DNA of 64,000 bases. It comes from Dehalococcoidia bacterium. Lineage in GTDB: Bacteria > Chloroflexota > Dehalococcoidia > Lucifugimonadales > QGNO01. Below the pieces are notes generated by a model. That model had not been told where the DNA came from. It was given only the letters and a program-made list of their open reading frames with translations, and did not search any database. Positions within the stretch are counted from its first letter, which is position 1, and each line of letters starts with the position of its first letter. The stretch is from NCBI GenBank assembly GCA_965261825.1, contig CBDHED010000002.1, forward strand, positions 18,103 to 82,102, in the 5' to 3' direction. Position numbers and translations under genes: made by a program. This document shows, piece by piece, positions 23,125 through 63,232 of the stretch.

Positions 23125-23907
23125 TCAGGAGTCGTCCTGCTCGTCCGAGATCGGGGAGGCGGCGTTTCCCCGGCTGTGCCGGAGACGGTAGCTGTCGCCG
23201 TTCATCTCCAGGATGTGGACGTGATGGGTGAGCCGGTCCAGCAGGGCTCCGGTCAGGCGTTCCGAGCCGAAGACCTCGGTCCACTCGTCGAAGGGCAGGT
23301 TGGTGGTGACCATGACGGAGCCCCGCTCGTAGCGCTGGCTGAAGACCTCGAAGAGGAGTTCTGCGCCGGTGGGGGACAGGGGCACGAAGCCCTGTTCGTC
23401 GATGATCAGCAGGCTGAGGCGGGACAGCTGCCGCTGCAGGTTGAGCAGCCGTTTCTCGTCCCGGGCCTCCATCAGCTCGTGGACCAGGGCGGCGGCCGTG
23501 GTGAAGCCCACGGACATTCCCCGCTGGCAGGCGGCGAGGCCAAGGCCCAGGGCGACGTGGGTCTTGCCGGTGCCGCTGTTGCCGACGGCGATGACGTTCT
23601 CCCGGCGCTGGATGTATTCGCAGCGGGCCAACTCCATCACCAGTTGTTTGTTCACCGAGGGGATGGCCGTAAAGTCGAAGGTGTCCAGGCTCTTGACGGC
23701 GGGGAAGCGGGCGGCGCGGATCCGGCGCTGCACCATGCGCTGGTGACGGTCGATGAGTTCCAGCTCGGCCAGGCGCAGCAGGTACTGGGGGTGGTCCACG
23801 CCCTCGGCGGCGCACTGGGCAGCCATCTTCCCGTACTCCCTCAGGAAGCTGGGCAGCTTCAGTTCCTTCAGGTGGTGTTCCAGGAGCAGGGTGGACCGCT
23901 GGTTCAC
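23125..23907 (-). CDS. istB: IS21 helper ATPase IstB
   Basis: Walker A GNSGTGKTH, Walker B LLIIDE, and ...LLDRLTHHVHILEMNGDSYR. GTG at 23907 follows GGGAGGG and overlaps the istA stop (GTGA). In the ORF track this is the tail of an artificial 759-aa fusion. Confidence 0.85.
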   Translation of the reverse strand: MNQRSTLLLEHHLKELKLPSFLREYGKMAAQCAAEGVDHPQYLLRLAELELIDRHQRMVQRRIRAARFPAVKSLDTFDFTAIPSVNKQLVMELARCEYIQRRENVIAVGNSGTGKTHVALGLGLAACQRGMSVGFTTAAALVHELMEARDEKRLLNLQRQLSRLSLLIIDEQGFVPLSPTGAELLFEVFSQRYERGSVMVTTNLPFDEWTEVFGSERLTGALLDRLTHHVHILEMNGDSYRLRHSRGNAASPISDEQDDS

Positions 23908-25404
23908 GCCGCCCTCCCTGGCAGCAGGGCCATGTAGTCCCCGGCGGAGGTGGTGTTCACGCTCACCCTGGGCAGGTAGGGGTACAGATCCAGGTCGAGA
24001 CGGGGCGGCCGTCCCTCCAGCCGGCAGAGCACCAGGTGCTTCACGGCGTCGAAGCTCAGCGCCCCCAGACGGAGGGAGTCCTGCACTGCGGCGTGCACCT
24101 CTTCCTGCCTGAAGCTCTCTAGGAGCCGCAGCACCTGGACGAACTCCCGCTTGCCCCTTGGTCCCATCCTGGACTCCAGGAGGCGGCGCAGCGTGGCAAA
24201 CTCCCCGGGCAGGTCCCACCCCCGCAGGGGTGCCGCCTGGTCCAGGGCGCCCGTCTTCCGCTCCAAGAGCGGCAGGTAGTGGATGGGGTCGAAGACGAAG
24301 TCGTCCCGCTGGTAGGAGCGGGGGTGTCGGGCGATGACCTCCGACCCGCAACTGATGACCACCCGGTCCACGTAGCCTTTTATCAGAACGTCGCGGTGAC
24401 CGTAGGCCACCGGGGCCGAGTAGTCGGTGGTCCGGTACCGCACCAGGGATAGGGAACTGACCCGGCCCGCCCGCTGGTCGCAGGCGTCGTAAGGCGCGGC
24501 CGGCAGGGGCAGCAGGGCCTCCAGGTCCCGCTCCATCCGCTGGCCGATACTCTCCGTGTGGCCCCCGGAGCAGGGCGTCCATGCGCGCCAGGCAGCGCCG
24601 CTCCAGGTGGGCGTTCAGCGCCTCGAAGCTCTCGAAGGACGGGATGGGCACCAGAAAGTTGCGGCGCACGTAGCCCACCATGCCCTCCACCTTCCCCTTG
24701 TCGTTGCCCTTCCCGGGCCTGCCGAACCGGCCCTCGAACAGGTAGTGGGACTGGAGCTCGGTGAAGGCCCGGGTGCGCTTTCGCCGGCCGTCCCCCAGGA
24801 TCCTGGCCACCGCCAGCCTGGTGTTGTCGTAGAGGATGCTCTGGGGCACCCCGCCCAGGAATGAAAACGCCGAGACATGGCCGTCCAGGAAGGCCTCGGT
24901 GGTCTCCGCGGGGTAGGCCTTGATGAAGCAGCCGTCGCTGTGGGGCAGGTCCAGGACGAAGTAGTGGGCCTTCTGCTCCACCCCGCCGATGATCACCCGG
25001 GCCTCACCGAAGTCGCACTGGGCATGGCCCGGGGCATGGGACAGCGGCACGAACATCTCCTTGGCCCGGCGGCGGCGCTCCCTGACGTAGTCCTTGACGA
25101 TGGTGTACTGGCCCGCAAACCCGTGCTCGTCGCGCAGCCGCTCGAAGATGCGCTTGGCGGTGTGGCGCTGCTTCCGGGGAACACCGAGGTCGCCCTCGAG
25201 GATGCGGTCGATGACGCCGGTGTAGGGCTCAAGCTTGGGCCTTCGGGGAGGAGTCTGCCGCCGGTAGCCCGGCGGCATCGAATAGGCCAGCATCTTGCGC
25301 ACCGTATCCCGGTGCAGACCGAACACTCGGGCAGCCTCCCGCGTGCTCATCCCGTCCACCATGCAGGCCCGGCGCACTCGAACGTACAGTTCCACCTTGT
25401 ACAT
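23904..25404 (-). pseudogene. istA: IS21 transposase IstA with a +1 frameshift in a G5 run
   Basis: The N-terminal frame (HTH, then the DDE region to ...ARMDALLRG) and the C-terminal frame (MERDLEALLPLPAAPYD...) join cleanly as LRGHTESIGQRMERD if one G is removed from the run at 24562-24566 (C5 on the + strand). The cause could be a real mutation or an indel sequencing error. Confidence 0.8.
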
Positions 25405-25613
25405 CCTTCACACCTTCCATCGAGTTTCCTCCAACTCTATGGAAGGCGGCGGGTGGTACGGTTTTGCAGCGCCACTCTCGAACGCTCACCCCCGCCTCGC
25501 CGGTACAGTATTACTCCGCCCTTTACAACTCTCCCGAATCTGATAGCCTTCGTGTGACGACGCCAGCTCTCGAGTATTGGTGGGGACATCAGGCAGACCA
25601 CACAGCGAAGTAT

Positions 25614-30342: not shown

Positions 30343-32133
30343 ATGGACGGAAGCCTTGTCAGTCTCAATGGGTTACTTACCGGGAACCAAATATTCGATA
30401 TCCCCGTTTATCAGAGGGGCTACGCCTGGGAAAGGAAGAATCTGGAGGACCTGTGGGAGGACCTCTATTACTTGGACTCCTCCAAGAAGCACTATTTCGG
30501 CACAGTGCTTCTCAAAGATTCGGAGAAGACCGCTCGAACCGCGCTAGCTACTTTGAAACGGTTCGACGTGATAGACGGCCAGCAGCGGCTTACTACTGTC
30601 CTGATACTGTTGCGAGAGATCATCTCGCAGTTGAAGGAGGTAAGTGCCAATGAGTTGCAGGGGGAGGTAGACGCTCTGGAGAGGAGCTATTTGAAAGATG
30701 GTGGTCATTACAAGCTGAACCCGCTAGGTGACGATGGTGAATTCTTCCACCATGTTGTCATTGACGGCAATGATTTTCTGGCCAGCGCCACTCGTACTCA
30801 CTCCCAGCGCCGTCTCACAGAGGCCAGAGCCTTCTTCAGAGAACGGCTCATCAGCGAGAAAGAACAACAGGCATCGGAATACCAGAACTTCCTAGTGCAA
30901 TTCAAGCGGAAGATCGACGAGCTTCAGCTCATACAGTACCAAGTCAACTCGGATGCGGATGCCATTCGCATTTTCGAAACCGTCAACGACAGAGGCCGTC
31001 CACTGAGCAATCTCGAGAAGACGAAGAGTTTCCTAATGCACACCTCATACCTTGGGATAGAAGACGATGACGTGGTGGCGGGCAGGCTCAAAGAGTTGAA
31101 CGGCCACTTTTCCAGAATATATCGGCACTTCGAAGACGTGAGCGGAACCAAACATATGGAACGCTTGCGCTTGGACGAGAATGATGTTCACCGTTACCAC
31201 TTCATAAATTACATATCACCCGGAGACGCTTCGTCGCGTCCTACCGACAGTCTCAAGGACCGCATCAGGGATAGGTTGCGACAAGACCCTGAAGAGTGTG
31301 TTGAGTATGCACTCACTTACGCCAAAGACCTAGAGAAGGCTTTCCTCGCAGTGAAGCACATTACCGAAGCCTACAGGGAGGATGAAGAGGGCAGGACACT
31401 GAGCAAGATTTTCATGATGGAGAGGATAGGGAACATCTTCCCGCTTTTGATAGCCTCCTGGCTGAGGTTCGGAGATGATGGCACACGCTTGGAGGAGGTC
31501 CTGAGACTTCTAGAAGCATTCGTCGTTCGCGTATACCTGGTGGGCGGATACCGGGGCCATACCGGGGCGTCCACATTAAGTGGAATAGCTCACAGAGTGC
31601 ATCAGAAGAGGCTGGACTACGACGGCCTGATTGGTGAATTGCAAGGGATGAATCGTTATTACCAGGACGACGGTCTGTTCAAGCGTTCCCTTGGTTGGGG
31701 CGACTTTTACGATCGCCTAGGCTCAAGAACCATTAGGTACTTGCTGAGCGAATATGAGATTCATCTCAGAACGAAGGTTGATGTGCCGTTGGCTGTCTCG
31801 ACACAGGAGAAAATCCTGTCGTCCGGCTACGAGGTGGAGCATATCTGGGCTCAGAATCCGTCTTATGAAATGGGCGTGGAGGAAGAATCGGAACACCGGC
31901 AGAATGTCCATCGGCTTGGTAACCTGACCATAGCTTCGCAGTCGTGGAACAAGAGCATGGGGAACAAGACATTCCAGGAAAAACGGTGGCAACCTGGAGA
32001 CATGCCTAGTTACTCGAATTCCAATTTGTTGGTACAGAAAGAGCTAGCTAAGCTTACCGCTTGGGATGTCGGAGCCATCAAGGATCGAGAGGCCGACATA
32101 GTGGAGTTCGCATTGCAAAGGTGGGCTGTATAG
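30343..32133 (+). CDS. GmrSD-like type IV restriction enzyme (DUF262 + DUF1524)
   Basis: The N-terminal DUF262 signatures are IPVYQRGYAWE and IDGQQRLTT. The C-terminal His-Me/HNH-like DUF1524 signatures are EVEHIWAQN and HRLGNLT...WNKSMGNK. Confidence 0.8.
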   Translation: MDGSLVSLNGLLTGNQIFDIPVYQRGYAWERKNLEDLWEDLYYLDSSKKHYFGTVLLKDSEKTARTALATLKRFDVIDGQQRLTTVLILLREIISQLKEVSANELQGEVDALERSYLKDGGHYKLNPLGDDGEFFHHVVIDGNDFLASATRTHSQRRLTEARAFFRERLISEKEQQASEYQNFLVQFKRKIDELQLIQYQVNSDADAIRIFETVNDRGRPLSNLEKTKSFLMHTSYLGIEDDDVVAGRLKELNGHFSRIYRHFEDVSGTKHMERLRLDENDVHRYHFINYISPGDASSRPTDSLKDRIRDRLRQDPEECVEYALTYAKDLEKAFLAVKHITEAYREDEEGRTLSKIFMMERIGNIFPLLIASWLRFGDDGTRLEEVLRLLEAFVVRVYLVGGYRGHTGASTLSGIAHRVHQKRLDYDGLIGELQGMNRYYQDDGLFKRSLGWGDFYDRLGSRTIRYLLSEYEIHLRTKVDVPLAVSTQEKILSSGYEVEHIWAQNPSYEMGVEEESEHRQNVHRLGNLTIASQSWNKSMGNKTFQEKRWQPGDMPSYSNSNLLVQKELAKLTAWDVGAIKDREADIVEFALQRWAV

Positions 32134-37775: not shown

Positions 37776-38013
37776 GTGAACATGAAACGAGAACCCACAT
37801 ACGTAGGCATCGACGTCGCTAAAGACCGAGTGGATATCGCCGTACGTCCAACAGGTCAGAGCTGGAGCGCGTCCTACGAGGAAGAGGAGGTGGAAATATT
37901 GGTTGCCAGGCTGCAGGTACTGGAGCCGGCCGGGGTGATACTGGAAGCTACCGGTGGTCTGGAGCTTACATTGGTAGCGGCCCTGGCTGCGGCATCACTA
38001 CCAGTGGCAGTGG
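37776..38013 (+). pseudogene. IS110-family transposase, N-terminal fragment only
   Basis: YVGIDVAKDRVDIAV...VILEATGGLELTLVAALAAASLPVAVV is the DEDD N-terminal pattern of IS110 transposases. Homology ends at about 38013. Confidence 0.65.
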
Positions 38014-38241
38014 TGTCTTCCTCTGGCCAACCGATGAGTCATCGCTGAGCAACCCTGTGCTTCTGTTGGCCTTCACAATGCTGTCGCAGTCCAGGAGAAC
38101 CAGATCAACGGCTGAGTGGTCGCCGTAGGGTAGGAGGCCGAGTGCCCACGCGTATGCCTGCCCGAGGTGGCCAAGACCTATGAGCCAGAGCCGCTTAGGC
38201 AGATAGAGACACGGTTCGCCAAAGGCGGGTTCATCCCTCAA
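38014..38241 (-). pseudogene. ThiF/E1-like (Rossmann) protein fragment
   Basis: RLWLIGLGHLGQAYAWALGLL...DLVLLDCDSIVKANRSTGLL resembles the GxGxxG nucleotide-binding loop and D.D.v..sN..R motif of ThiF/MoeB/E1 adenylyltransferases. It is cut off at the IS110 fragment junction. Confidence 0.4.
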
Positions 38242-40252: not shown

Positions 40253-40678
40253 TTGACGAACAGAAAGGTGTTTGTCTCATACGACCACGAAGGAGACATG
40301 CTTGAGGTTCTCTGGGCGTTCCGGGAAGGGTACTTCACTCCCACCAACGATGAGCGCATCCTCAAACGGCTGAACGACGACGGAGAGGTTATCGGGTTCC
40401 TGATCCACGAGATGAGCTCGCTCAAGCAGCCGAGCCCCGTCGAGTTCGAGCTGGCTTCCGAGGGCCCCGACGAAGATGTCTCCAACGTCACGGTGCGGGA
40501 GGCGGCTGTCAGGTTGGGCGTGTCAGAGCGCAGGGTGCGCAAGCTGGCACGGGACGGCCGGATGCGGGGAGCAGTGAAGGCCGGTGCCGAGTGGCTGATT
40601 CTAACGCCGGTCGAGGTGATACCGGGCAGGCGCGGTCCAGTGGGTGTTGCCGGGCGCGTGAGCGCTACAGGAAACTAG
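40253..40678 (+). CDS. DUF2283-like N-terminus fused to an excisionase/MerR-type HTH
   Basis: VFVSYDHEGDMLEVLW is a DUF2283-like start. VTVREAAVRLGVSERRVRKLARDGRMRGAVKAGAEWLI is an HTH_17/excisionase-like segment. Confidence 0.5.
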   Translation: MTNRKVFVSYDHEGDMLEVLWAFREGYFTPTNDERILKRLNDDGEVIGFLIHEMSSLKQPSPVEFELASEGPDEDVSNVTVREAAVRLGVSERRVRKLARDGRMRGAVKAGAEWLILTPVEVIPGRRGPVGVAGRVSATGN

Positions 40679-41233
40679 AATGGTCGCCCAACGTCATACC
40701 CACGACATGCCTGAAGGGTCCTCGCGCGGCAGGAAGGGGTCTTGGCTATTTCGCCACAATGGCAGATAGGCAAGCGCGAACGCCAAAATCAGAGGAAAGA
40801 TAAAGCCCATGGCAAGACAAAATGATATTGATCTCTTTCTCAGTGGCGTCGATTCTTGGAACCGCGTCTTCGACCCATCCGACCAGAATAGAGCCGAAAA
40901 GTCTCGTTCGAGACCGAGCCTACGGTATAAGGCGGACTTGAGCGAGACGCACATACCCCGACGAAGAAGACTATGACTTGCGGTTTCCAGACGGCAGCAT
41001 ATTGACGGTACCTGAGATGTGGCCGGCGACCCTAAGTAGGCCCGAAGAATCGGTTCGATCCTTACCAAGTGGGCCTAAGTGGATGGTAGGTGGTACCGTC
41101 TTCGAGATGTGGCTGGGGGCTTTGTGAACCTCCTTTGGCTCAATTGCGCCCTCCTGCTCCTCCTGGATTGCACTTACGTGTCCCGACTGGCGTTTGGCTC
41201 TCCGAGTCTACGCAAGCCTCAAAGGTGTGCCTC

Positions 41234-42526
41234 CTACCCCGAGGCCGACTCATGGAGTGCGACTAGGGGTCCGAGTTCCCAGTCCCCCCGATCCGCCCCG
41301 TCGAGCACATCCGCCAGTTGATTAATATCCCTGGCATGCATTCCTAGGCGCCCGTGTCGCCACAAGCGACACCCAAGCCCATCGATTTCTATGTCTTCAT
41401 CACGCCATCTTCTTTGATCGTCACCATAGAAGAGGAGTCTACTTCCGCCATGCGACCAACTGATTTGGAGACCCGGAGGGTGACTGCCGGTGAAGTTAGA
41501 GAAGATTTCCGTCTCTTGCCCTGCGGAGTCCAGTGCCACACTTTGGGGAGTAGCGACAACAACCAGTCCCAAAGAAGTGGGGACTAAACCCCAGTCGCCG
41601 TGACTCCCCGTGCCTTCGTCCCGGATGTTGCCTTGGATGTCTGCCCCTCGTCGGCGTAAGCGCTCTACCCCAGAAGTAATCCTGTAGGCCTCCAGCAACG
41701 CCTCAACTATTGCAGGCAGGAATACCGGGTAGGGAGTTAATCCTTTCACCAGGTTGCTACCGTGAAGATTACTCGACTGCGGAAGCATGGTAGTGGGTTC
41801 TGCGAAATACCTGACGTCCACATACACTCCATCTCGTTGACCGTATGTATTGGAGTAGAGCGACAAGATTTGTTCGATTGTGGGTGCCTCGTGCCCATGT
41901 TCCAGAATTGCAGCGACTATTTCTGACTGGCGGAACAAACGCTCTGTTTCAATCTTGTACTCGTTGTTGAGATCGTCGTACAGGTCCTTGAGAGAGTGCA
42001 CATGAGCAGGATTCTCCGAGCGAATCCCAAAGGACTTCAACGCTTGCTCTGCCGACGTTACTAGCAATAGAATCGCCGGCATGGCCTCCTTGAGGCTGTT
42101 CGGAAACCGGCCCCTGGGCAAGAGAGTCCAGAACTGACGAAGGTACTCTCGTGCCATTTCTGCCATGAGGTCAGGATCACCGTACTGGTCAACAACGCTA
42201 CCGTCTTGGATACGGCCTTCTGAGGTCGGTATGAACACGCGATCTTGAAGCCGGGTCACGCCGTGCATACCTAGAAACGGTCTGCCGAACCAATTCAAAT
42301 ATGTAAGTTCTACTGTCTCGCTCTTGCCGCTACTCCGGAGCGAAGCCCTGGGCGAATAATTGTCAAAGTTCTGGATTTCGGTTTTTACCTCGCTACCGCA
42401 ATTTTGGCAAACGTACGGAGTCTCGGCTTGGACAAGGGAGTTAAGCCACGGCAGGCCGAGTCGAAAGACTCTTGTTGGCTGCGGCACCAGCTCCTGCTCA
42501 CGACATCTCGGACAATTTCCCTTCAT
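41234..42526 (-). CDS. Hypothetical protein with an N-terminal zinc ribbon and a HEPN-like helix motif
   Basis: 430 aa. CPRC...CQNC forms the zinc ribbon. TSAEQALKSFGIRSENPAHVHSLKDLYDDL (about residues 157-187) fits the classical HEPN helix pattern (a.e.aLKa....R.....H.L..L). It is the third gene of a tight - strand operon, with a 24-nt gap. Confidence 0.5.
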   Translation of the reverse strand: MKGNCPRCREQELVPQPTRVFRLGLPWLNSLVQAETPYVCQNCGSEVKTEIQNFDNYSPRASLRSSGKSETVELTYLNWFGRPFLGMHGVTRLQDRVFIPTSEGRIQDGSVVDQYGDPDLMAEMAREYLRQFWTLLPRGRFPNSLKEAMPAILLLVTSAEQALKSFGIRSENPAHVHSLKDLYDDLNNEYKIETERLFRQSEIVAAILEHGHEAPTIEQILSLYSNTYGQRDGVYVDVRYFAEPTTMLPQSSNLHGSNLVKGLTPYPVFLPAIVEALLEAYRITSGVERLRRRGADIQGNIRDEGTGSHGDWGLVPTSLGLVVVATPQSVALDSAGQETEIFSNFTGSHPPGLQISWSHGGSRLLFYGDDQRRWRDEDIEIDGLGCRLWRHGRLGMHARDINQLADVLDGADRGDWELGPLVALHESASG

Positions 42527-42550
42527 CTATACTCCCTACTAGTCAGACAA

Positions 42551-43657
42551 TCAGAAGTACTTACGGCTAACCAGTTCGTTTATTGTTCGCTGGAGGTCTG
42601 CCAAGAAGTTCTCATCAATGGTGTCCGTCCACCAATGAGCGATATCATCCCTGTAATCAGTTAGCTCCTGCAGAGTCTTCTTGCCTGCCACAACTACCTT
42701 GTCATGCTTGATACTCTTCCCCTGGTAGTTGAGGTATTTCCTTCCCGCGTCTTGCAACGATTGCCATAACTGCAAATACTGGAGGCGCTGGTAGGCATCG
42801 TCCTTATACTCATCTCTGTACATCGAGTTAACTAGCAGCGCCATGTGGGGGGCACCAATGTCCTGTTCCATAGCAGCAATGGCCCTACGTATATCAGATG
42901 CCCTGCCTCTGTACGCGGTGGTATCCATCGGCGTCACTTTGCTCAACCTCACCGACGCCGTAGGGCGCATCATCACTACGAACCGGCCGTCGTCTGTCAC
43001 CAGACAGTTCTGGTCTACGTATTTGCCTATCGGATCCGGAGTCTTCTGGCCGACACGGACGCCAGCTAGTATCATGTTTACCAACTGTTGGTTGTTGGGC
43101 AGTTCGGGCCACGCTCCGTCAATGGTAGGACTAGCGATTATGAACTCCTCTCCCTCCCTACCGCCGACCAACATGGGTACTTGTTCGCCATCTTCCACGA
43201 CTATCTCGTCCGACATACTGCATTCACCCTTGACCATCTCTACTGGCGTCAACTGGTTAGACTCCTCGATCACCAGGAACACTGGTACTCGACCCTTCTG
43301 TTGCAGTTTGGTCTTCTCATCGGTCTCACCGACCAAATGCCGCAAGCTAGGGCTGATGGCGTAATGCTTACTACACGTCGAGTTCACGAAGTAGTCCACT
43401 AGATTTGAAGCGACACACGCCTGAACCGAGGGAGACGCGTAAATCTCGTAGTGAGGTTCGTCGCCGTCCGCATGGAAAGCGATCCCCGGAAACTCGAAAA
43501 TCTGTGTGCGACAATACTCACTGATTGTGCAACAGAAGTCCTTACCCCCTAGGCCCGCGTGCATTCTCCGTGCTCCGGCTAACGTAAAGTGCGCTTCCGG
43601 AGGAGTCGGTTGCAGAGACTGTTGACGATCCGCTACTGTTCGATCCGTTCTGGTCAT
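42551..43657 (-). CDS. Hypothetical protein with a C-terminal Rx4H (HEPN-like) motif
   Basis: 368 aa. The C-terminal helical region is ...RLQYLQLWQSLQDAGRKYL...LQELTDYRDDIAHWWTDTIDENFLADLQRTINELV, with RDDIAH (Rx4H, acidic residue after R). It lies 78 nt downstream of the methyltransferase gene. Confidence 0.5.
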   Translation of the reverse strand: MTRTDRTVADRQQSLQPTPPEAHFTLAGARRMHAGLGGKDFCCTISEYCRTQIFEFPGIAFHADGDEPHYEIYASPSVQACVASNLVDYFVNSTCSKHYAISPSLRHLVGETDEKTKLQQKGRVPVFLVIEESNQLTPVEMVKGECSMSDEIVVEDGEQVPMLVGGREGEEFIIASPTIDGAWPELPNNQQLVNMILAGVRVGQKTPDPIGKYVDQNCLVTDDGRFVVMMRPTASVRLSKVTPMDTTAYRGRASDIRRAIAAMEQDIGAPHMALLVNSMYRDEYKDDAYQRLQYLQLWQSLQDAGRKYLNYQGKSIKHDKVVVAGKKTLQELTDYRDDIAHWWTDTIDENFLADLQRTINELVSRKYF

Positions 43658-43735
43658 TGTTCATATACTCCTCTTGAAGTTGGCACTCTGACTTCTGGCT
43701 TCTCCTACGGTGCAATGCAGACACTAGACGCCGTT

Positions 43736-46700
43736 TCAACCTGCCTTGTTTGCCAACAATGCCCCGACTGCCTCCTCCACGGCGTTGCCCTCCACCTTCT
43801 CTCGCAGCCATTTCCGGATCTCCCGCCGGGCGATAGTGACGGTCACCTCGCCCCGGTCCTCGCGCAGCCGGGCCAATCGCTCAGCCGCTCCCTCCGCCGC
43901 CACTCTGCCAGCCTCGGATACGACGGCGTGTAACGAATCCTCGGGGTCGAACTCCGGGATGGGCAGCTTCCACAACTGCTTTTGCAAATCACGAGCACCG
44001 AATTGGCCTTTTGACATCAATGGTGTCACCATCTCATACAAGGCATCACTATTGATGATAGCCAGCAGGTAATAGGCTTCCTGTGCATCCCTACAGGTAA
44101 CCCAAAACAGCTTATAGTCAACGATAGCGTCGTCTTCGTGAAGCAGTGCGGCCGTTGGTGCTCCCCATCCACCGTACACTATCCGGATTTGCCTATCACC
44201 GGGTTCATGCCTCCATTCCAACTGCGACGAGAGCTTGCCGTAATAGTCCAACTGCCCCAACAGGTTCATTTTGGTAGCTGCCGCCCTGTTTGCCTCCCAC
44301 AGGTTGCTGACGACCCGCCAGCGGTCGCGCATCCTCTGGCTCAATCCGCCCAAGCGAATGCCGCCCACACCGTTCTTGCCGGTCGGTACTTCGTGTTCAC
44401 CACGTTTTAGAGGCAAGACCGCCCGTAATGGGTCGAGCGTCGCGTAAGGAACAATCGTCTCGCCCAGGTGAACGTCGAACACATGGGCAACTTCAACCGT
44501 CTGCTCGGATACAGTGGCCAAGTCGAGGCTCTTCCAAGGCTCTTTGTCCTGAGAGCCCCGTCGTGGGTTTACGGTGATGGTCTGACCAGCCTGAACGATT
44601 GCCGGATTCCTGGTCTCCTCCACGAAGAATAGAGGACGGGGATAGATGGTCGCACCATTTCTTGAGAAATGACCATAGGGAGAGATGCTAGCTGTTGATG
44701 TGTCAACTATGGCTACGCGTTTACGCCTATCAGAGTCCTCTCCTGGCTCACCCAACCAACGCTCTACCTGACCTGCCAGAGGCGTCGCCTTGCCGTCTTC
44801 ACCGCTGCGTCTGGCGAACACAACCGACGCCGGGACGGGAAAGAAGGTGTTGGGTTCCAGCCCCTCAAGGTCCCAAGCCATCTTGTGATCAAAGTCGACC
44901 GACAGTACACGATCCGCAGTGCGGTTCCTTCCTCTACCAACCGACTTCGTCTGCCATGCGCCCGTGCGCCATTTGGAATGTTGGCCCGTCTGAAGGGCGC
45001 TGTGGGGCATCACCATACCAATAACACCACTGTCTTTCAGGTATAGGTCGACGCACCGGGCAAAGAATAGGCTAGATATGTCTTGGTGGTTGGCGTGTCT
45101 GCCACCGACCCAAATGCCGTACAAATCCTTGCTCTGTCGTTCCAGCTCAGTCCGCAGCGTGCTGGCGGTGTTCCGATAGATCAGCCACGGCGGGTTGCCG
45201 ACGACCACGTCCACCTTGCTGCGGGATAGGGCCACGGGGCGCACCAGATTACGAGTGTAGTAGGCCCAGATGTGGTTGCGCCCCTCTGTGTGCAGCCGCT
45301 GCATGGCGGAGATGGTCTCCTGCAAGGTCTGCCGCTCCCCAGGTTCCGTGATCTGGTGGTCGTCGAGTGCGAGGTTGGGGTCGTCGCCCCTCTCAATGGC
45401 CTCTGCAATGTCGCTCATCAGCGCGTCGAAGGTCTCGGCCCGCTCCACCAGACTCACGGGAAAGACCAACTCCGTGTTCTCCTCATCCTCCACCTGAACG
45501 GTTACGTTGTGCTCGGCGAACATGTCACCGGTGCGAAACCGGAGTTTGAGGGCGTCTCCTAGGTAGACGGGAACGGTGACATTGGCTGCGAAGCCGTCCT
45601 CGACCGCCGCCTGTATCGCAGGCTGCGCCGCCAGCACCCATGCGGCCCTGGCCAAGTGCACGGCAACCGGGTGAACGTCGATGCCGGCGACGGAAAAGCG
45701 CAGCCACTCCAACACCTCTTTCGGGTCTAGGGAGGTCTCGTTGGCGGCCTCGATGAAGTGGTTGACCGCCTCGGCGACGAAGGTTCCAGACCCGCAGGCC
45801 GGATCGAGGACGTACTGGTCGAGGGGATCGGTCACCACTTCCCGCACGATGGCGCGCGCCAGCCAGTCCGGGGTGTAGTACTCTCCCAACTGGCGCCGCT
45901 CGTGGGGCGGTATGACGGTCTCGTAGAGGATGGCGGCAACATCGTTGGGAGCCTTCTGCCAGTCGAACCTAGCTATACGACGAGCCAGAGGTCTCAACAG
46001 GGGCAGCCCGCCTACCTCGGTGGGCCACGCAAAGAAGTCCGACTCCACGACTCCCTGAAGACCGGTCTTGCTTCGGAAGTCGCGGCCAAGCAGCAGGTCC
46101 GCCGGGTCGTTCTCCCCCAGTCGCTTGATGTCGCCGCCGAAGGAGGCTTGGACCACCATGCCGATGACGGCGCTCAGGTAGGTGTGTCGGACGAATAGGT
46201 CGTCCAGTTGAGCGCTTGACCTAGCGATCTCACCCAGGGCCGCCGTGAGCAGGTTCTCCCATAGCTGTCTCTTGACTCTGATGGTGCTGGAGTCGGTATG
46301 CTGGTCGTAGAGGACTTTGAGGGCTGCTATGTCCCGCTCATAGGATGGTGCCGTTGGGCCGAAGTGCTGTGCGATGGTAGAGCGGGACGGCTGCTTGTCT
46401 ACCTCTGCGGAGAGAGCATGGTCACGGAGCCATTCGAAGAGAGTAATCCAGCGGTCTGCGTCCTCCAACGTGAAGGCGTAGGGCATGGCCGTCCTGACCG
46501 GACCCGCGTTGGGCCAGCGCAGCAGCCATCGCTTGCCGTCCGTGAGGATACCCATGCGCATCCGGCCCTGCTCCCCTGACTGCTCCAGGTAGTCGTCGAG
46601 TTGCTGGACATACTCGGGATTGGGGTTGAAGCCTCCGGCGGTCCCGATCCGGCGCTTGAACTCTATGAATGTATCGAGAGCAGCGAGGTCCACGGCGCGG

Positions 46701-46885
46701 CGCGAGCCCTGTGCAGGCGGGTTCTCCTCAACGATGTCATCGGCCTTTACCAGTCCCGTGAGGATGAGGAAATCGCGCACAGCGCTGGTGATGTTCGCCT
46801 CGGGCTCGCCATTTTCATGCCGCCGCAGAATCTCAGCGGCAGCCTGGGCGTACCGGGCATCGTTGTAGTCAATCTGAATGGACAC
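43736..46885 (-). CDS. Type IIG/IIL-like restriction-modification enzyme (N-terminal PD-ExK nuclease-like domain + gamma-class N6-adenine methyltransferase + TRD)
   Basis: 1049 aa. AVDLAALDTFIEFKRR is a D-x8-E-x-K nuclease-like core. GEYYTPDWLA is present, motif I is VLDPACGSGTF, and motif IV is VVGNPPWLIYRN. The long C-terminal part ends in the ...LLAIINSDAL...LWKLPIPEFD pattern common in this enzyme class. Confidence 0.75.
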   Translation of the reverse strand: MSIQIDYNDARYAQAAAEILRRHENGEPEANITSAVRDFLILTGLVKADDIVEENPPAQGSRRAVDLAALDTFIEFKRRIGTAGGFNPNPEYVQQLDDYLEQSGEQGRMRMGILTDGKRWLLRWPNAGPVRTAMPYAFTLEDADRWITLFEWLRDHALSAEVDKQPSRSTIAQHFGPTAPSYERDIAALKVLYDQHTDSSTIRVKRQLWENLLTAALGEIARSSAQLDDLFVRHTYLSAVIGMVVQASFGGDIKRLGENDPADLLLGRDFRSKTGLQGVVESDFFAWPTEVGGLPLLRPLARRIARFDWQKAPNDVAAILYETVIPPHERRQLGEYYTPDWLARAIVREVVTDPLDQYVLDPACGSGTFVAEAVNHFIEAANETSLDPKEVLEWLRFSVAGIDVHPVAVHLARAAWVLAAQPAIQAAVEDGFAANVTVPVYLGDALKLRFRTGDMFAEHNVTVQVEDEENTELVFPVSLVERAETFDALMSDIAEAIERGDDPNLALDDHQITEPGERQTLQETISAMQRLHTEGRNHIWAYYTRNLVRPVALSRSKVDVVVGNPPWLIYRNTASTLRTELERQSKDLYGIWVGGRHANHQDISSLFFARCVDLYLKDSGVIGMVMPHSALQTGQHSKWRTGAWQTKSVGRGRNRTADRVLSVDFDHKMAWDLEGLEPNTFFPVPASVVFARRSGEDGKATPLAGQVERWLGEPGEDSDRRKRVAIVDTSTASISPYGHFSRNGATIYPRPLFFVEETRNPAIVQAGQTITVNPRRGSQDKEPWKSLDLATVSEQTVEVAHVFDVHLGETIVPYATLDPLRAVLPLKRGEHEVPTGKNGVGGIRLGGLSQRMRDRWRVVSNLWEANRAAATKMNLLGQLDYYGKLSSQLEWRHEPGDRQIRIVYGGWGAPTAALLHEDDAIVDYKLFWVTCRDAQEAYYLLAIINSDALYEMVTPLMSKGQFGARDLQKQLWKLPIPEFDPEDSLHAVVSEAGRVAAEGAAERLARLREDRGEVTVTIARREIRKWLREKVEGNAVEEAVGALLANKAG

Positions 46886-46981: not shown

Positions 46982-47431
46982 CTACTCCGGCGCAACGAAC
47001 TCTCCTATCCAGTGTACGTTGTCAATGCTTGGGCTTGCGGCCCGGTAGAACCTCTCATCGGCAGTCCACAGCTCGCAACCGAAACTCTCCGCCAGCGCCA
47101 GGTAGTGGGCGTCGTAGGCGGCACCCTGCTTGAGTTGACTTGCGAGTTGCAGCGCTCTGACGTGGAGGCCCGGCGGCTGGTGTAGTTCGAGCCGGGACTC
47201 AAGCAGCCGTGAAATCATGCGGGTACTGTCGCCGACGTTCAGTTCCCCGCGCAACACCCGCCGGTGGAGAGCGTTGGCGACCTCAAAGGGCATGAGGTGC
47301 GGGGCGATGCGGGCTATGTCCTGGGCAACCCAGGATTGGAGGACTGCGTGGGCTTTGTCAGAGTCATCCTCTTCAACCAACCACTTGACCGCCAGGCTCG
47401 CATCGACGACGACGGACCCGCTCACGCCCAC
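46982..47431 (-). CDS. vapC: VapC-family PIN toxin
   Basis: VVVDASLAVKWLVEE...YDAHYLALAE...LWTADERF shows the typical PIN acidic residues. Confidence 0.8.
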   Translation of the reverse strand: MGVSGSVVVDASLAVKWLVEEDDSDKAHAVLQSWVAQDIARIAPHLMPFEVANALHRRVLRGELNVGDSTRMISRLLESRLELHQPPGLHVRALQLASQLKQGAAYDAHYLALAESFGCELWTADERFYRAASPSIDNVHWIGEFVAPE

Positions 47432-47724
47432 CCCACGGTTTCGGCATCCCTGATCTCACGGGCCTCCCGGATCAAGTCGGCGGAACTCCCAGGCAGAGGC
47501 TTGCCCCCGAATATCTCCTGCCGGAGCTCTGCAAACAGCTCATGGTCTGGCTTGTCGGACAACAGTCCGGCCATCCCGTTGGCTTCGTCCCTTGTCAACT
47601 CCCGGTCAATTGCAGCTTGGCAGTACCCACGCATGCTCACTCCTTTGAGTGCGGCGATGGCTTTGAGCCGTCGCTGAAAGGTGGGGTCCAAGTCCAGAGT
47701 GAGTCTCTTCTTCTTGGTTTCCAT
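47422..47724 (-). CDS. RHH-type antitoxin (VapB-like)
   Basis: KKRLTLDLDPTFQRRLKAIAALKGVSMRGYCQAAIDREL is an RHH motif. It overlaps vapC by 10 nt. Confidence 0.6.
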   Translation of the reverse strand: METKKKRLTLDLDPTFQRRLKAIAALKGVSMRGYCQAAIDRELTRDEANGMAGLLSDKPDHELFAELRQEIFGGKPLPGSSADLIREAREIRDAETVGWA

Positions 47725-47899
47725 CGCCTACGCCTCGCTAAGTTGATACTCTAGGGTAAGGATATGACAAATACGGAAAGATAATCAATACACTGGGAAA
47801 AGCTGAGCAACAAGAGAGCGCCCGCATACACGGTATTGGCACGATTGGCCGTGACTGCAATGCGTCGGCCTCTCCTGTATCTTGCGCATACTGCCCCGC

Positions 47900-48514
47900 T
47901 CACGCCTCCCCTTGTCCCGGCTCCTCAGCCTTTGGCATCCGGTAGCCGACGCGCGGCTCGGTGAAGATGTAGATGGGGTTGTCCGCGTCATCGCCCAGCT
48001 TGCGGCGGAGCTTGCTTACGATGGTGCGGATGGGCCGCACGTCGCCGCTGCTCTTCTCGCCCCAGACCCGTTCCAGCAGATGCTCGTAGGTCAACAGCCG
48101 CCCGGCATTGGCCGATAGCTCGGCGAGCAGCCGGTACTCCATCGCTATCAACGGGAGCGGACGACCGGCAAGGGTCACCCGGCGTTCGGCATAGTCGATT
48201 GTCAGGTCTCCCAGCACGTAGGGTTCTGACGGCTCGGACGCCGCCCGCTTGCGCAGGGCCGCCCTGATCCTCGCCGCCAGCTCCGTCGGCGAGAAGGGCT
48301 TGACGACGTAATCGACGGCTCCCATGTCAAAGGCCCTGGCGATGAGCTCGTCCCGGCCGTAGGCCGACAGGAAGATGACCGGCACGTCGCCCGCCCCCAG
48401 GATGTCCTTCATCAGCTCGATCCCGTCGGTCCCCGGCAGCATGAGGTCGAGCAGGACCAGATCGGGCTTCTCCTCCTCCACGAGTCGGAGCGCCTCCTCC
48501 GGGTCCCCGGTCAC
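47900..48514 (-). pseudogene. OmpR-family response regulator lacking the first ~30 codons
   Basis: The receiver domain starts mid-way (..GDPEEALRLVEEEKPDLVLLDLMLPGTDG..). The N-terminal acidic pocket (DD) is absent. The winged-helix output domain (..RVGYRM) is intact. There is no plausible ATG and no sensor kinase partner. Confidence 0.7.
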
Positions 48515-48519
48515 AACTG

Positions 48520-50273
48520 GCCCTAGCGCCTTACCAGCTCGAGACCTATAAGAAGGCCGACGTGGAACGGGACGAGTTCGAGCAGGGCCGAGAGGAAGCG
48601 CTGGCGGGCATCTTCAGAAGCCGCTACTTGAAGCGCTTCGAGTCCAGCGTGGACGCCTTCCGCATCAGCGTGCGGCGCGCCCTGGAGTTCACCAAGACCT
48701 TCGAGAGCTACCTGCTGGACGGCAAGCTCCTCGACAGCACGTCCTTTCAGAAGGCCATGCGGTACCTCGCCCGCGAAGACGAGGACGACGGCGGCGCCCC
48801 AGCGAGCCGGGCCGACGAGATGGACGCTAGCGATGAGGCGAGAGAGGTGCTAGAGAGCCTTGAGTCGTTGGATACCAGCCAGTATGAGCTCAGAAGGCTG
48901 CACGAGGCCCTCCAGCACGATGTGGACTCCCTGACCGAGCTATGGCGGCTGGTCGGCGGCATCACCCCCGGCCAGGACTCCAAGCTTCAGACCCTCAAAC
49001 AGATGCTGTCGAAAGACCTGAAGGGGCAGAAGGTCATCGTGTTCACCTACTACCGGGACACGGCTCGTTATCTGTACAGAGAGCTGGGCGGCGACAGTGG
49101 CGCAAACTTCCGCAAGGATGCGGGGGAGCCGACGATTCGTCGCATGGACGGCGGCGCTTCGCCTACGGAGCGGTCCCGGCTCATACAGGCTTTTGCCCCG
49201 CAGTCCAACAACAGGCCAGACTTGGTCGGCTCCGATACGGAATTGGACATCCTTGTCTCAACGGACGTGCTGTCCGAGGGCCAGAATCTCCAAGACTGCG
49301 GAGTCCTAGTCAACTACGATCTGCACTGGAACCCCACTCGCATGGTTCAGAGGGCGGGACGTATCGACCGTATCGGGTCGAGGCACCCCCTGCTGTGGGT
49401 GCACAACATGTTCCCGGAAGAGGGGCTGGAGCGGCTCCTTGGCCTCGTGGAGAGCCTGAATCGCAAGATCACCGACATCGACCGCACCGGATTCCTCGAC
49501 GCGTCGGTGCTAGGTGAAACGGTTCACCCCAGGAATTTCAACACCCTGCGCCGCATCATGGACGAGGACGGCACGGTGATAGAGGAGCAGGAGCAGTTCA
49601 CCGAGTTGGCCAGCAACGAGTTCTTGCTTCACCAGTTGCAAAACCTACTGGACACGGGGGCGCGTGAGATGCTCGAAGAACTGCCGGACGGAATCCACTC
49701 CGGGTTGGCGCGAGTTGGCGAGACGGGAATGTTCTTCTACTTCACCGCGCCCGGACCGAGGGGTGGGGGGCTGCGGCACTTTTGGCGCTACTACGACATC
49801 AAGGGGGACCGAGTGCTCGACAACAGGTTCCTCATCGCCAATCTGATCGCCTGACACGCCGCGAGTGGTGGGCGACTGCGATGTCTTCGCCATCCAAGAC
49901 AGGGTGATCGACGACATACTCAGTTCCGTGCGTGAACAGCAGGCGGTGGAAGCAGCGCCCAAGAATCCTAGACCCGCTGCAACAGACGGTGATAACGCTG
50001 CTGCGGGGGTACCTTGATAGCCCGACAGTCAAGCGAACTGAGGTCAGGGAGGCAATGCAGCGCCTGCAGTTCCCGATGACCCACGCGGCCATCCGAGATC
50101 TGCGACGGGCTTGCGAGCGATTCCAACGGAATCAGGATATCGGCCCAATCATTAGCCACGTGGTTTCCATGGATGCTGTTGAACCCGACGGTGCGTCATC
50201 CGGCTCTGGCGCCCAACCTCCGCTAGCGCAAGAGGACCTGCACTTAGTCTGCTTCGACTATATCTGGAGCTAG
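48520..50273 (+). pseudogene. SNF2-family helicase, C-terminal half only, with further frameshifts near the 3' end
   Basis: Helicase-C motifs are present (KVIVFTYYRDTARYL, STDVLSEGQNLQDCGVLVNYDLHWNPTRMVQRAGRIDRIG), but there is no SNF2_N/DEAH half. After 49854 the sequence continues sensibly only by switching frame twice (DTPRVVGDCDVFAIQDRVIDDILSSVREQQAVEAAPK, then ILDPLQQTVITLLRGYLDS...). Confidence 0.65.
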
Positions 50274-51284: not shown

Positions 51285-51554
51285 TTATGAACAAGCGCCC
51301 CAGCGCTGTGCATCTTCCCACACTGGCAGCCTCCCTTCAGATAGTGAGATAAAGGTGTCGGATTTCCCATTCCGTTCAGGGTGACCTGCGTACTCATCCC
51401 GTGTGCAGTGGGCATAGTACCCATCGGCTGATAGGAAACCGTAGCAGCGGCGACCCTCTCCCTGGGCTAGGTCCGCGTGCCGCCACACACGGGGTACGGG
51501 TGGTTGGCTCTGAACTGTTGCCAGGACTCTCGACCATCTTTCTTTATCTGCCAT
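51285..51554 (-). pseudogene. Possible N-terminal fragment of a phage/plasmid primase-type protein
   Basis: CYGFLSADGYYAHCTRDEYAG...TFISLSEG loosely resembles the Cys/His N-terminus of P4-type primase genes that follow alpA. The ORF ends prematurely. Confidence 0.25.
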
Positions 51555-51759
51555 CCGATGGGTCCCACTTCCTATCCGGAGACTGGAGCCAGGCAACTAT
51601 GTCTGGCTTACGCCAGCCTACAGCGCGGGCACCCAAGCGGATCGGCGGAGGGAAACTGCCGTCAGCCACCTTCTTGTAGATCGTTGCCCTCGCCAAGCCG
51701 GTCACTTGGGAGACTTTATCTCTGCGTATTATTTGATTTTCCTCTAGTGCGTCATCCAT
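51544..51759 (-). CDS. alpA: AlpA-family phage regulatory / excisionase-like HTH protein
   Basis: IIRRDKVSQVTGLARATIYKKVADGSFPPPIRLGARAVGWRKPDIVAWL is the canonical AlpA pattern. I use the ATG at 51759. Confidence 0.7.
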   Translation of the reverse strand: MDDALEENQIIRRDKVSQVTGLARATIYKKVADGSFPPPIRLGARAVGWRKPDIVAWLQSPDRKWDPSDGR

Positions 51760-52333
51760 TGGACTCTCTCCGTTTATTGAATTGGCAATAACTCTAGAGA
51801 GCTCCACATCTGATGTGTGCCAATTAAGTGGGTGCAAAATCGGGGACTTAATTGTCCATTGGGTGTGTCGTACCATGTCTGCGTCCACCCGCGCCTCTGT
51901 TGCTTCCACCATTGCGACTCGGTTTTTGCCTGAAGTGGAGGCGGTGGAGGAAGTGAAAGGAAACCTTACTGCACGTGAGAGTTGGTGGCTTTGTGGCACC
52001 GATCACCACCGTTGCAATAGCCCAATTGCGCCCTCTCCGCTCTTCCGTTATAGTGAATTAAGAGTTCCCTAGTTCAAACGTCTTCTCTCTCGTAGGGAAA
52101 CCCAAGCAGATCAAGATTGTGGGACGGAGTGTGGGATTAGAGACTGTGCCGCTTCGTATCCGTGGCTAAACAGACCTCAGTACGTAGGACGCTCCCTCCG
52201 CCATCTACGCTTGTCCTACGCCGTCCACACTGTAGGCTCTTTATTGCCTTGTTGCCGGGTTGCGTTGCTCCCACAAGGACTGGTGGAACACCATAATTCG
52301 TAGTTCTATGACTGCGTCTGTGACGCATCGTCG

Positions 52334-62019: not shown

Positions 62020-62089
62020 AAGCCACTGTACTGTTTCCTCACCGTATTTGTAGACGCTAGTGTCCCAGTGTTCATACTGTGAAATCAGA

Positions 62090-62172
62090 TGGGGATGGTG
62101 GGATTCGAACCCACATGCCGCTGGCGGCGCTAGTTTTCAAGACTAGTGTGTCTACCGTTCCACCACATCCCC
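62090..62172 (-). tRNA. Class II tRNA, anticodon UGA (Ser by anticodon) with tRNA-Leu-like body
   Basis: The reverse complement is GGGGATGTGGTGGAACGGTAGACACACTAGTCTTGAAAACTAGCGCCGCCAGCGGCATGTGGGTTCGAATCCCACCATCCCCA. It folds into a cloverleaf with a 7-bp acceptor stem, a 3-bp D stem, anticodon stem CTAGT/ACTAG, and loop CTTGAAA. The extra arm is 15 nt, the T arm is GTGGG-TTCGAAT-CCCAC, and the discriminator is A. No CCA is encoded. Confidence 0.8.
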
Positions 62173-62175
62173 AAT

Positions 62176-62267
62176 GTTGAGGGGCGCGTCACACGCTAGC
62201 CCAGTCAAACGGTTACAACGTTTGGTTGGATTTAGGCTACTGCCCAGTCAAGGCCGCGCCCCTCAAC
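62176..62267. repeat. 13-bp perfect inverted repeat (GTTGAGGGGCGCG ... CGCGCCCCTCAAC) between the transposase and the tRNA
   Basis: The arms are at 62176-62188 and 62255-62267, and the 66-nt spacer contains GCCCAGTCAA twice. It lies immediately 5' of the tRNA on the - strand. Confidence 0.8.
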
Positions 62268-62344
62268 CGCATTATAAATGCGTGTATTTGGATAAGCAAG
62301 ATGGCAAACGGCAAAGAACAGCGTGGTTTAACTAAAGAGGCGTT

Positions 62345-63232
62345 TCAGAAGTTACTTCGTAAGGCCGCGCAACCTATACGGAAGCCACCCGGCCCAGAAG
62401 TTGAACGAACATCGGAGTCTCTGTCGCTCCGGTGATTGAACCTATAGACGTAGGAGTCCAAGTAGCCCTGTAGATGCTTTGGACTCACGGCATGGTGAAC
62501 GCCGTCGATGCCCCGCTTGACGTTGCTCCACATCCCTTCCACGTTGTTAGTGTGAGCCCTACCCACTACGTATTCCTTCGCGCTGTGCTGGACGGTTTCA
62601 TGGGCATATCCCAGGCTGGTCAATCGGTTGTAGCTAAGCATCTCATCAGTGTAGACCGTCTGGCCTTGTGGGATGTGCGCTTGAATCATGGGTAGAAGGG
62701 TGCGAGCCTTCACATCTGGCACAACCTTGACGACAGCCGACCCTCCGCGTTCCACCATACCGGCAACGATAGTCTTGCCTTCTGCCCCACGCCCGCGCTT
62801 CCCTGGTCGCTTCCCGCCCACGTAGGTTTCATCGACCTCAATCTCCCCGAACAGGACAATATCGTCCTGCGCCATGATGGATCGGATTTGCTTGAACATG
62901 CGCCATGCGGTCTTGTAAGTGACTCCAACCTCACGCTCAAGCTGCTTGGCGGATATGCCCGTTCTGGTGGATGCCATGAGGAACATGGCATGGAACCAAG
63001 ACCGGAGGGAAGTGGAAGACTTGTGGAAGATAGTGTCGGCTGTGGGGGAGACGTGAGAAGCACAGAATTCACAGCTATAGACCTTCCGGCCTGTGATTCG
63101 AAAGTGCTTGGTGATACGCTGACACTGAGAGCAGGTTATCCCTTCAGGCCATCGGGCGTTCTTCAGGAACTCAAGGCAAGAGTCTTCATCGGGGAACTGG
63201 GCATTGAACTGTTTGATTGTGTACTTGTCCAT
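62345..63232 (-). CDS. IS1595-family transposase
   Basis: The N-terminal zinc ribbon is CSQCQ...CEFC. The DDE region has ...VEVDETYVGG...VYTDEMLSYN...HTNNVEGMWSNVKR.., the typical IS1595 pattern. Confidence 0.85.
   Translation of the reverse strand: MDKYTIKQFNAQFPDEDSCLEFLKNARWPEGITCSQCQRITKHFRITGRKVYSCEFCASHVSPTADTIFHKSSTSLRSWFHAMFLMASTRTGISAKQLEREVGVTYKTAWRMFKQIRSIMAQDDIVLFGEIEVDETYVGGKRPGKRGRGAEGKTIVAGMVERGGSAVVKVVPDVKARTLLPMIQAHIPQGQTVYTDEMLSYNRLTSLGYAHETVQHSAKEYVVGRAHTNNVEGMWSNVKRGIDGVHHAVSPKHLQGYLDSYVYRFNHRSDRDSDVRSTSGPGGFRIGCAALRSNF

Follow-up and report, generated by a model that had tools for sequence, protein, structure and literature searches.

The window analysed here, a stretch of 64 000 nucleotides (nt) from a Dehalococcoidia bacterium (contig CBDHED010000002.1), carries on its minus strand three consecutive genes, called g1, g2 and g3 below (Table 1). 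The first encodes a predicted type IIG-like nuclease-methyltransferase and the other two encode proteins with HEPN-like motifs. An initial annotation proposed that the three form one integrated defence operon. Comparison with related loci (designated by L numbers) led us to a different reading, which we hold with moderate confidence: the locus is best seen as a composite, made up of defence-type modules that are each mobile separately, and does not form a single three-component machine. The domain content of the proteins, the boundaries of the modules, their distribution and a recombination mosaic are observed directly; the RNase activity and the defence role of g2 and g3 we infer. On the composite reading g1 would be self-sufficient, with nuclease, methyltransferase and C-terminal specificity region in one chain, marking host DNA and cutting unmarked DNA. 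The g2 product would be a metal-independent RNase of the HEPN (Rx4H) kind, working as an autonomous effector, toxin-like or of the abortive-infection (Abi) type. The g3 product would be a different HEPN protein, normally a lone cargo at tRNA-adjacent integration sites, whose gene lost its own leader in this lineage and was fused 24 nt behind g2. The result would be a set of independent layers, namely the type IIG-like enzyme, a toxin-antitoxin pair and two autonomous HEPN proteins, the extra domains of which would sense or restrain the RNase, as in single-protein HEPN defence genes such as HEC-08.

The descriptive part of the initial annotation holds: the open reading frame (ORF) coordinates match exactly, with gaps of 78 nt between g1 and g2 and of 24 nt between g2 and g3, and the motifs quoted for the three proteins were all found at defined positions. 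The vapBC pair reported immediately upstream on the same strand is there as well, 96 nt separating vapC from g1, and its arrangement is that of VapBC, a PIN toxin gene with a small antitoxin-like gene ahead of it that overlaps it by 10 nt (the product is ParD/ribbon-helix-helix-like, below the cut-off). The G+C content is indeed lower in g2 (0.528) and g3 (0.542) than in g1 (0.604; whole window, 0.59), and the modular origin that had been read from this difference is backed by the module boundaries and the recombination mosaic as well as by the values themselves.

Table 1. Features of the g1-g2-g3 locus and its left flank (positions in the window)
Feature	Position	Strand	Basis or remark
Response-regulator gene fragment, left edge of the 7.46-kb block	47900-48514	-	Intact 831-aa hybrid kinase/regulator in L006
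Cassette left end, conserved leader	47725-47795	-	Homology to L011, L041 and L042 starts at 47791-47830
vapB-like antitoxin gene, first cassette gene	47422-47724	-	100 aa; Pfam ParD 23.2 bits (cut-off 27.3)
vapC, PIN-domain toxin gene	46982-47431	-	149 aa; Pfam PIN 39.2 bits (cut-off 23.6)
g1	43736-46885	-	1049 aa, GTG start
g1, putative PD-(D/E)xK motif D66-x8-E75-x-K77	46655-46690	-	Sequence motif
g1, methyltransferase core, motif I to motif IV	45185-45805	-	Pfam matches and motif positions
g1, variable region	44035-45233	-	Residues about 550-950; drop in nt identity to L006
g1-g2 spacer	43658-43735	-	g2 leader of ~40 nt with GGAGTA ribosome-binding site (RBS)
g2	42551-43657	-	368 aa
g2, Rx4H motif R336-D-D-I-A-H341 (RDDIAH, 336-341)	42635-42652	-	Conservation in relatives
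g2 3' tail, g2-g3 fusion junction	42527-42550	-	RBS-like GGAGTA and the ATG used by g3
g3	41234-42526	-	430 aa
g3, four-cysteine zinc ribbon C5, C8, C40, C43	42398-42514	-	CPRC 5-8, CQNC 40-43
g3, HEPN signature E160-x3-K164 ... R169-x7-H177	41996-42049	-	Conservation in relatives
g3 module, conserved 3' flank	41069-41233	-	Homologous to solo g3 3' flanks in L034 and L035

The whole arrangement is common only to the window and to L006, where it is one 7.46-kb block (48516 to 41069, 87% nt identity) with different flanks in the two loci, homology stopping at 41069. A scan with one genome per species gave 27 g2 loci, located in metagenome-assembled genomes of Dehalococcoidia, Caldilineaceae, Alphaproteobacteria, Binatia, Longimicrobiales, Latescibacterota and Acidobacteriota-type lineages; a g1-type gene is present in 5 of the 27 and a g3 relative in 2. 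When the pair of N6-methyltransferase motifs was sought in the ORFs within 10 kb of g2, for 29 g2 loci, no such ORF was found in 20. The closest non-identical g2 (82%) is solo, the genes upstream of g2 vary (STAND-SMODS protein, heparinase, luciferase-like oxidoreductase, sugar transporters), and clustering of all ORFs neighbouring g2 revealed no other conserved neighbour. As to g3, its relatives at 82, 77, 71 and 40% identity have neither g1 nor g2 nearby, the last of them following an integrase in a defence island, and the gene is absent from L041, L042 and L012. The expectation that homologs of the two small genes would go together with methyltransferases thus fails for g3, which occurs solo, and for the majority of the g2 loci.

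This distribution largely refutes the idea of a true three-gene system, in which g1 and both HEPN proteins would couple self/non-self marking to abortive infection, and we now regard it as very improbable. It was suggested by the tight same-strand spacing, and one may add that no terminator-like site was seen between the genes, in a sigma-70 and terminator scan which returned fewer sites than shuffled controls and is unreliable for this organism. Moreover, g3 has no leader of its own and probably depends on upstream transcription, and a g3-type gene is found near the cassette in L011 too. But the trio is confined to a single block shared by two loci, the L041 cassette has no g3, close g3 relatives are solo, and the L011 gene belongs to another subfamily (43%), separated from g2 by two unrelated genes (YaaC-like and 176-aa) that show no recurrence with g3.

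Instead of a trio, the comparisons delimit two kinds of unit. The first is a 5.3-kb vapB-vapC-g1-g2 cassette, the ends of which are the same in three or more contexts. Nucleotide homology of the window to L011 and L041 covers these four genes only, from about 47795 to 42534, and stops in both loci 16 nt past the g2 stop codon; a search for inverted or direct repeats at the cassette ends gave nothing convincing. The sequence TTGATTATCTTTCCGTnTTTnTCATAT upstream of vapB is kept in four contexts, and this leader could hold a putative promoter/operator. The vapB-like gene is 95-98% identical in L006, L011 and L041-L043, L041 carrying vapBC-g1-g2 and L042/L043 carrying vapBC-g1 with a truncated g2 (L041-L043 were sampled from the g1 side). 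The leader and RBS of g2 travel with it into unrelated contexts (L009, L022, L015, L007, L014, L013).

The second unit is the g3 module. Homology of the window to solo g3 modules begins at 42521, about g3 codon 3, and runs 135-165 nt past the g3 stop, to 41069, the 3' flank in the window ending in a tRNA-3'-end-like remnant, CCACTTAGGCCCAC (41069-41085). Solo modules have their own leader of ~130 nt, absent in the window. They are enclosed by direct repeats that resemble tRNAs or tRNA 3' ends, and no integrase gene lies between the repeats. In L034 the module comes just 3' of tRNA-Val (Arg/Val tRNA genes, 6701-6860); in L037 it comes just 3' of tRNA-Ala, with another tRNA-like copy beyond it (6104-6177, 6784-6857, 8843-8919); and in L035 it lies between direct repeats ending GGCCCACCA (6840-6858, 8388-8406). 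The g2 tail, of ~30 nt and ending in GGAGTA..CAGATG, is kept in loci where no g3 follows (L008, L009, L022, L011, L041), and its ATG is the start codon of g3 in the window, which argues that the g2-g3 junction is a derived and recent fusion, specific to the window and L006. Here g3 is probably co-transcribed with g2. A conserved small ORF beginning at the conserved ATG after g2 was also considered and was rejected because the downstream frames differ between loci.

The cassette itself is a mosaic. Compared with L041, identity is 95% for g1 and 75% for g2; compared with L006, it is 85 and 97%. At the nucleotide level, identity to L041 is 96-99% in g1, drops sharply to 60% at the g1/g2 boundary and is then 72-88% across g2, while identity to L006 is 64-76% in the central and C-terminal part of g1 and 96-100% in g2 and g3; a recombination breakpoint lies in the g1-g2 spacer. 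Within g1, the variable region is 64-84% identical to L006 (mostly 64-76%), with flanks at 84-100%, and 96-98% identical to L041. This pattern looks like a specificity-domain swap between otherwise similar enzymes, and the alignments indicate that, inside the cassette, recombination exchanges g2 alleles as well as the specificity region of g1. In the g2 tree, g1-linked copies are interleaved with unlinked ones. Either gene can be found degraded while the other next to it is still intact: in L012 an IS630-type (DDE_3) transposase truncates g1 (7010-7693), in L006 g1 is frameshifted, and in L042/L043 it is g2 that is truncated. Mosaic and decay would fit a positionally stable cassette with exchangeable parts. 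We also noted that g2 is split by inserted DNA in L023, L025 and L027, the L025 insert including an HNH-helicase gene.

Several points weigh against the composite reading. All eight loci with this g1 family, at 64-97% identity (L006, L011, L012, L025, L027 with a g1 remnant, L041 and L042/L043), carry an adjacent g2 or a remnant of it, so that the linkage part of the initial idea survives; L025 keeps g1 and g2 in a different, head-to-head arrangement, with g1 inverted; and hitch-hiking alone does not fully explain so constant an adjacency. The g3-type gene of L011, a second and distant one, lies 2 kb downstream of the cassette. At the protein level, the HEPN fold of g2 is no more than probable, the R-x7/8-H spacing of g3 is outside the canonical Rx4-6H, and RNase activity and phage defence are putative for both the g2 and the g3 family.

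A functional coupling of g1 and g2 is accordingly worth considering. One possibility is that the two genes form a pair, in which a restriction-modification (R-M) enzyme would be backed up by a latent HEPN RNase when restriction is blocked, g3 being an unrelated later addition. The logic would be analogous to that of PrrC-EcoprrI, and R-M-linked HEPN genes are a documented theme (PMC3710099). The constant adjacency, which persists to 64% g1 identity and even in inverted form, is what such a pair would predict, as are cassette ends identical in several contexts and a position held while g2 alleles are swapped. However, g2 mostly occurs without a methyltransferase gene, linked and unlinked copies are interleaved in the tree, each gene decays beside an intact partner, and library scans matched no PrrC-like ABC-ATPase sensor domain. 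In addition, the sampling of g1 relatives went no lower than 64% identity and was made mostly via g2, so the sample is biased. We regard the pair as possible but doubtful. A bolder proposal, to which we give slightly less credence still, is that vapBC-g1-g2 is a conserved mobile immune cassette with g2 as a latent RNase released on blocked restriction, specificity and g2 alleles being shuffled by recombination and g3 providing a further HEPN layer in this lineage; if true, a PrrC-like logic would have arisen anew, with a type IIG enzyme as partner and without an ATPase.

The composite reading assigns an immune role to g2 and g3, and here another explanation comes into play: one or both could be non-immune, as selfish toxin-like or addiction genes, or as accessory genes of small mobile elements in variable regions. 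Each forms a discrete module whose flanks are conserved, and each is met in housekeeping and island contexts alike; g2 has relatives at 54-78% identity in no fewer than five phyla; g3 lies at tRNA sites with duplicated tRNA ends, or by an integrase; and scans of a viral contig collection with g1, g2 and g3 revealed no relatives. A selfish role would nevertheless be unlikely in our opinion, as neighbour clustering found no conserved antitoxin or recombinase partner beside g2 and many of the contexts are defence islands (SIR2, SMC, ubiquitin-like system, GmrSD, STAND-SMODS, R-M genes). There is also a validated precedent, HEC-08, a single-protein anti-phage gene with DUF3644-type HEPN and zinc-ribbon-like domains, the HEPN histidine of which is required (10.1101/2024.01.29.577857). 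The arrangement proposed for g2 and g3, HEPN plus zinc-binding or other domains in one protein encoded beside other immune systems, resembles that of HEC-08; the differences are that the zinc ribbon is N-terminal in g3, that no PADLOC model matches g3 and that g2 has marginal matches only.

Turning to the proteins, g1 is, from its matches, a type IIG-like single-chain nuclease-methyltransferase, as initially annotated. It matches the PADLOC model PDLC03630 REase_MTase_IIG over two stretches (2.1e-65, 219 bits) and, in Pfam, N6_Mtase (45.4 bits, cut-off 20.4) and Eco57I (40.2 bits, cut-off 25.3), and its motif I (DPACGSGT, 361-368) precedes motif IV (NPPW, 564-567), the order of gamma-class N6-adenine methyltransferases. 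The N-terminal VD-x8-EFK is invariant in three relatives (93, 92 and 66% N-terminal identity). Since residues 1-260 gave no profile, PDB sequence or fold match, the assignment of a putative PD-(D/E)xK nuclease domain is plausible but unproven. The variable region is taken to be the putative specificity-determining part (target recognition domain). Thus g1 shares with type IIG/IIL enzymes (Eco57I-, MmeI-like) the D-x8-ExK motif, the gamma-class methyltransferase and the long C-terminal region in one chain, and its mosaic specificity region fits the way such enzymes diversify. It differs in that the Pfam MmeI_Mtase match (21 bits) is below the cut-off of 27 and that its putative nuclease and specificity regions match no profile or solved structure. 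The earlier statement that partners of other methyltransferase-containing systems are missing was borne out. The NCBIfam BREX PglX models give 18-41 bits against cut-offs of 400-900, the neighbours of g1 being vapBC, g2 and g3, with no PglZ or BrxC; similarity to MADS MAD2 is far under its cut-off; and as to DISARM, the DrmMI match (3.9e-09) covers a short stretch and the only other trace nearby is a truncated DrmD-like half gene.

For neither g2 nor g3 did direct family scans (Pfam, NCBIfam, PADLOC, PHROGs) give anything significant; searches of PDB sequences with their profiles returned chance-level matches only (designed proteins, ribosomal protein L20, FAF1), and no ATPase family was matched in library scans of either. 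The g2 family is large: it comprises 507 clusters at 90% identity, and an exhaustive profile search gave 231 representatives at 50%. An alignment of 34 full-length relatives, the most distant of them at 22% identity, has H341 as its sole invariant residue apart from Met1; R336 is conserved in at least 90%, A340 is nearly invariant and the residue following R is mostly N or D, which gives the form R[ND]xxAH. Upstream lies a [DE]-x3-R helix (D287-x3-R291), analogous to the Ex3[KR] that, with Rx4-6H, defines HEPN motifs (PMC3710099). Sub-threshold Pfam matches of the relatives are to HEPN_RiboL-PSP (7/34, best 0.0054), HEPN_Cthe2314 (2 members, 0.0017) and HEPN_MAE_28990 (2 members, 0.02), to which the PADLOC models CARF_HEPN and RTasHEPN may be added, and all these weak matches of distant members fall on the motif helix; a match to DUF3644 has an E-value of 0.16. 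Because the Rx4H motif is conserved and the weak matches converge on HEPN models, we call g2 a probable HEPN protein with a C-terminal helical domain. This is the part of the initial claim that can be kept. The AlphaFold2 (AF2) model of g2 is poor, with a mean predicted local distance difference test (pLDDT) of 58, low confidence for the C-terminal helices (246-364) and nothing meaningful in Foldseek.

The N-terminal region of g2, about 240 amino acids, is unrelated to any described domain, and the protein matches no named HEPN family above threshold. Its motif h-R-[ND]-x-I-A-H near the C-terminus is reminiscent of AbiD/AbiF-like and RiboL-PSP-HEPN proteins, the latter matched weakly by the seven relatives mentioned above, but these matches are below cut-off and restricted to the motif helix. 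The recurrent adjacency of a HEPN-motif gene and an R-M gene recalls PrrC-EcoprrI and RloC. The differences are that g2 has no ABC-ATPase domain, that its partner is type IIG-like and not type I, and that g2 and g3 lie mostly away from R-M genes, with no obligate R-M operon. A profile-profile comparison of g2 with g3 indicated no relationship (probability 0.4%); we note, within this insignificant match, family-conserved residues of the form [DH]-G-x-W-x(2,3)-P ... V-x-V-x-Q in g2 179-207 and g3 308-331. Two individual loci deserve mention: one Dehalococcoidia genome (OZ240229.1; L011, L016) carries two divergent g2 paralogues at distant sites, 74 and 68% identical to that of the window, and in L013 a gene for a 1016-amino-acid protein combining a STAND-type ATPase, TPR repeats and a SMODS nucleotide cyclase (6923-9973) ends 27 nt before g2.

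The case for a HEPN domain is firmer for g3, a family of about 130 clusters (a scan of metagenome contigs gave two short contigs only). Its AF2 model is confident (pLDDT 88.7, predicted template modelling (TM) score 0.84) and divides into three: residues 1-107 make up a zinc-ribbon/beta domain, residues from about 118 to 292 a HEPN domain and residues 296-412 an alpha/beta domain. Among PDB entries Foldseek ranks the HEPN protein TT1696 first (1ufb; probability 1.0, target TM 0.63), followed by 1wol and 4nqf, and its best match in BFVD is a phage HEPN-domain protein (E 2.3e-3, target TM 0.65). Pfam PF05168 matches 44 of the 84 relatives in our alignment at E-values up to 1 (best 3.4e-05), P0233 (23.9 bits) being above the gathering cut-off of 22 bits and P0198 at 21.1; the g3 of the window has no reported match. 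In the relatives the match (residues 167-202) covers the stretch equivalent to E160-x3-K164 and H177. Top matches in two structure libraries and PF05168 in half of the relatives thus uphold the HEPN fold that was initially suggested, and the model indicates that g3 contains a HEPN domain.

All 84 relatives keep C40, C43, E160, K164, R169 and H177, and at least 90% conservation is seen for C5 and C8; many weak zinc-ribbon Pfam matches were obtained too. The helix AEQALKSFGIRSENPAHVHSLKDL (residues 159-182) had been said to fit the classical HEPN pattern. This is right for E-x3-K and for the fold, but the conserved histidine is H177, not H175, which makes the spacing R-x7-H, or R-x8-H in one subfamily. 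R169 ends the helix 145-169 and H177 is in the next loop, so that the position is right and the spacing atypical. Compared with PF05168 proteins (HEPN-T; 1ufb, 1wol, 4nqf), which are the best fold matches of the central domain and share E-x3-K and H-x-L on matching helices, g3 differs in having HEPN embedded between the zinc-ribbon/beta and alpha/beta domains and 7-8 instead of 4-6 residues from R to H. It also differs from HEPN-MNT pairs: no nucleotidyltransferase family, and hence no adjacent minimal nucleotidyltransferase gene, was found among the called neighbours of g3 in six contexts or in the window. Weak fold matches over 83-216 aligned columns, to phage NrS-1 N300 in the PDB and to viral primase-polymerases in BFVD, raised the possibility of a primase-polymerase; it was dropped because the family is without an obvious conserved DxD/H catalytic set.

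Two further observations concern the g3 gene. Its 3' flank holds CCACATCTCGAAGA, which is complementary to the first zinc-ribbon CxxC codons at the 5' end of g3 (13/15 nt in L035, 7012-7026 against 8361-8375; in the window, 41104-41116 against around 42500), and this may be chance or long-range RNA pairing. In L002-L004 an integrase adjoins the g3 relative P0177, and the island around them also contains a SIR2-SMC set and an operon for ubiquitin-like conjugation (ThiF, E2, Multi_ubiq, BubE).

The combination of genes had been described as one not recognised as a named system, which was overstated. HEPN genes linked to R-M systems have been described since 2013, with at least 16 HEPN clades so linked, PrrC-EcoprrI as the paradigm and a multi-pronged defence proposed (Anantharaman et al. 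2013, PMC3710099). What is new here is two HEPN families with undescribed architectures that behave as small, widely transferred modules, the defence mosaic itself being of a known kind. The g2 (~500 clusters at 90%) and g3 (~130) families are absent from Pfam, NCBIfam, PADLOC and PHROGs and associate HEPN signatures with new domain partners. Both seem to pass freely among five or more bacterial phyla in what looks like one habitat, perhaps a sponge-associated community, as one source name suggests. If they are single-gene anti-phage RNases, they would be additions to the defence catalogue of uncultured Chloroflexota and their neighbours. The vapBC-g1-g2 cassette, with its swappable specificity and effector alleles, offers a small model of the diversification of a restriction-linked cassette. 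The locus also calls for caution in screening: tight same-strand spacing is here no evidence of a system, the junction being a recent fusion.

Some features of the surrounding DNA may be added. The response-regulator fragment at the left edge of the 7.46-kb block is a 3' piece of a hybrid kinase/regulator gene. Abutting it on the plus strand (48562-49854) is the C-terminal half of a DrmD-like SNF2 helicase gene (profile positions 372-702 of 1021; 132 bits against a cut-off of 610), which points to a rearrangement at this edge. At 30343-32133 (plus strand) lies an intact gene for a restriction endonuclease of the GmrSD type (type IV), its GmrSD_N and GmrSD_C matches both exceeding the Pfam cut-offs, so that defence genes are plentiful in the wider window. 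Three stretches (22355-22885, 23279-23549 and 25289-25530) share 77-88% identity with cassette-flanking DNA of L011, L042/L043 and L012, and probably represent shared mobile or repeated sequence. Finally, traces of mobile elements are found around the block at 37776-38048, 40253-40678, 51544-51999 and 62088-63232; they include an N-terminal fragment of an IS110-like transposase (read by eye), a small HTH_17-type DNA-binding gene, an AlpA-family regulator and an IS1595 transposase adjoining tRNA-Ser.

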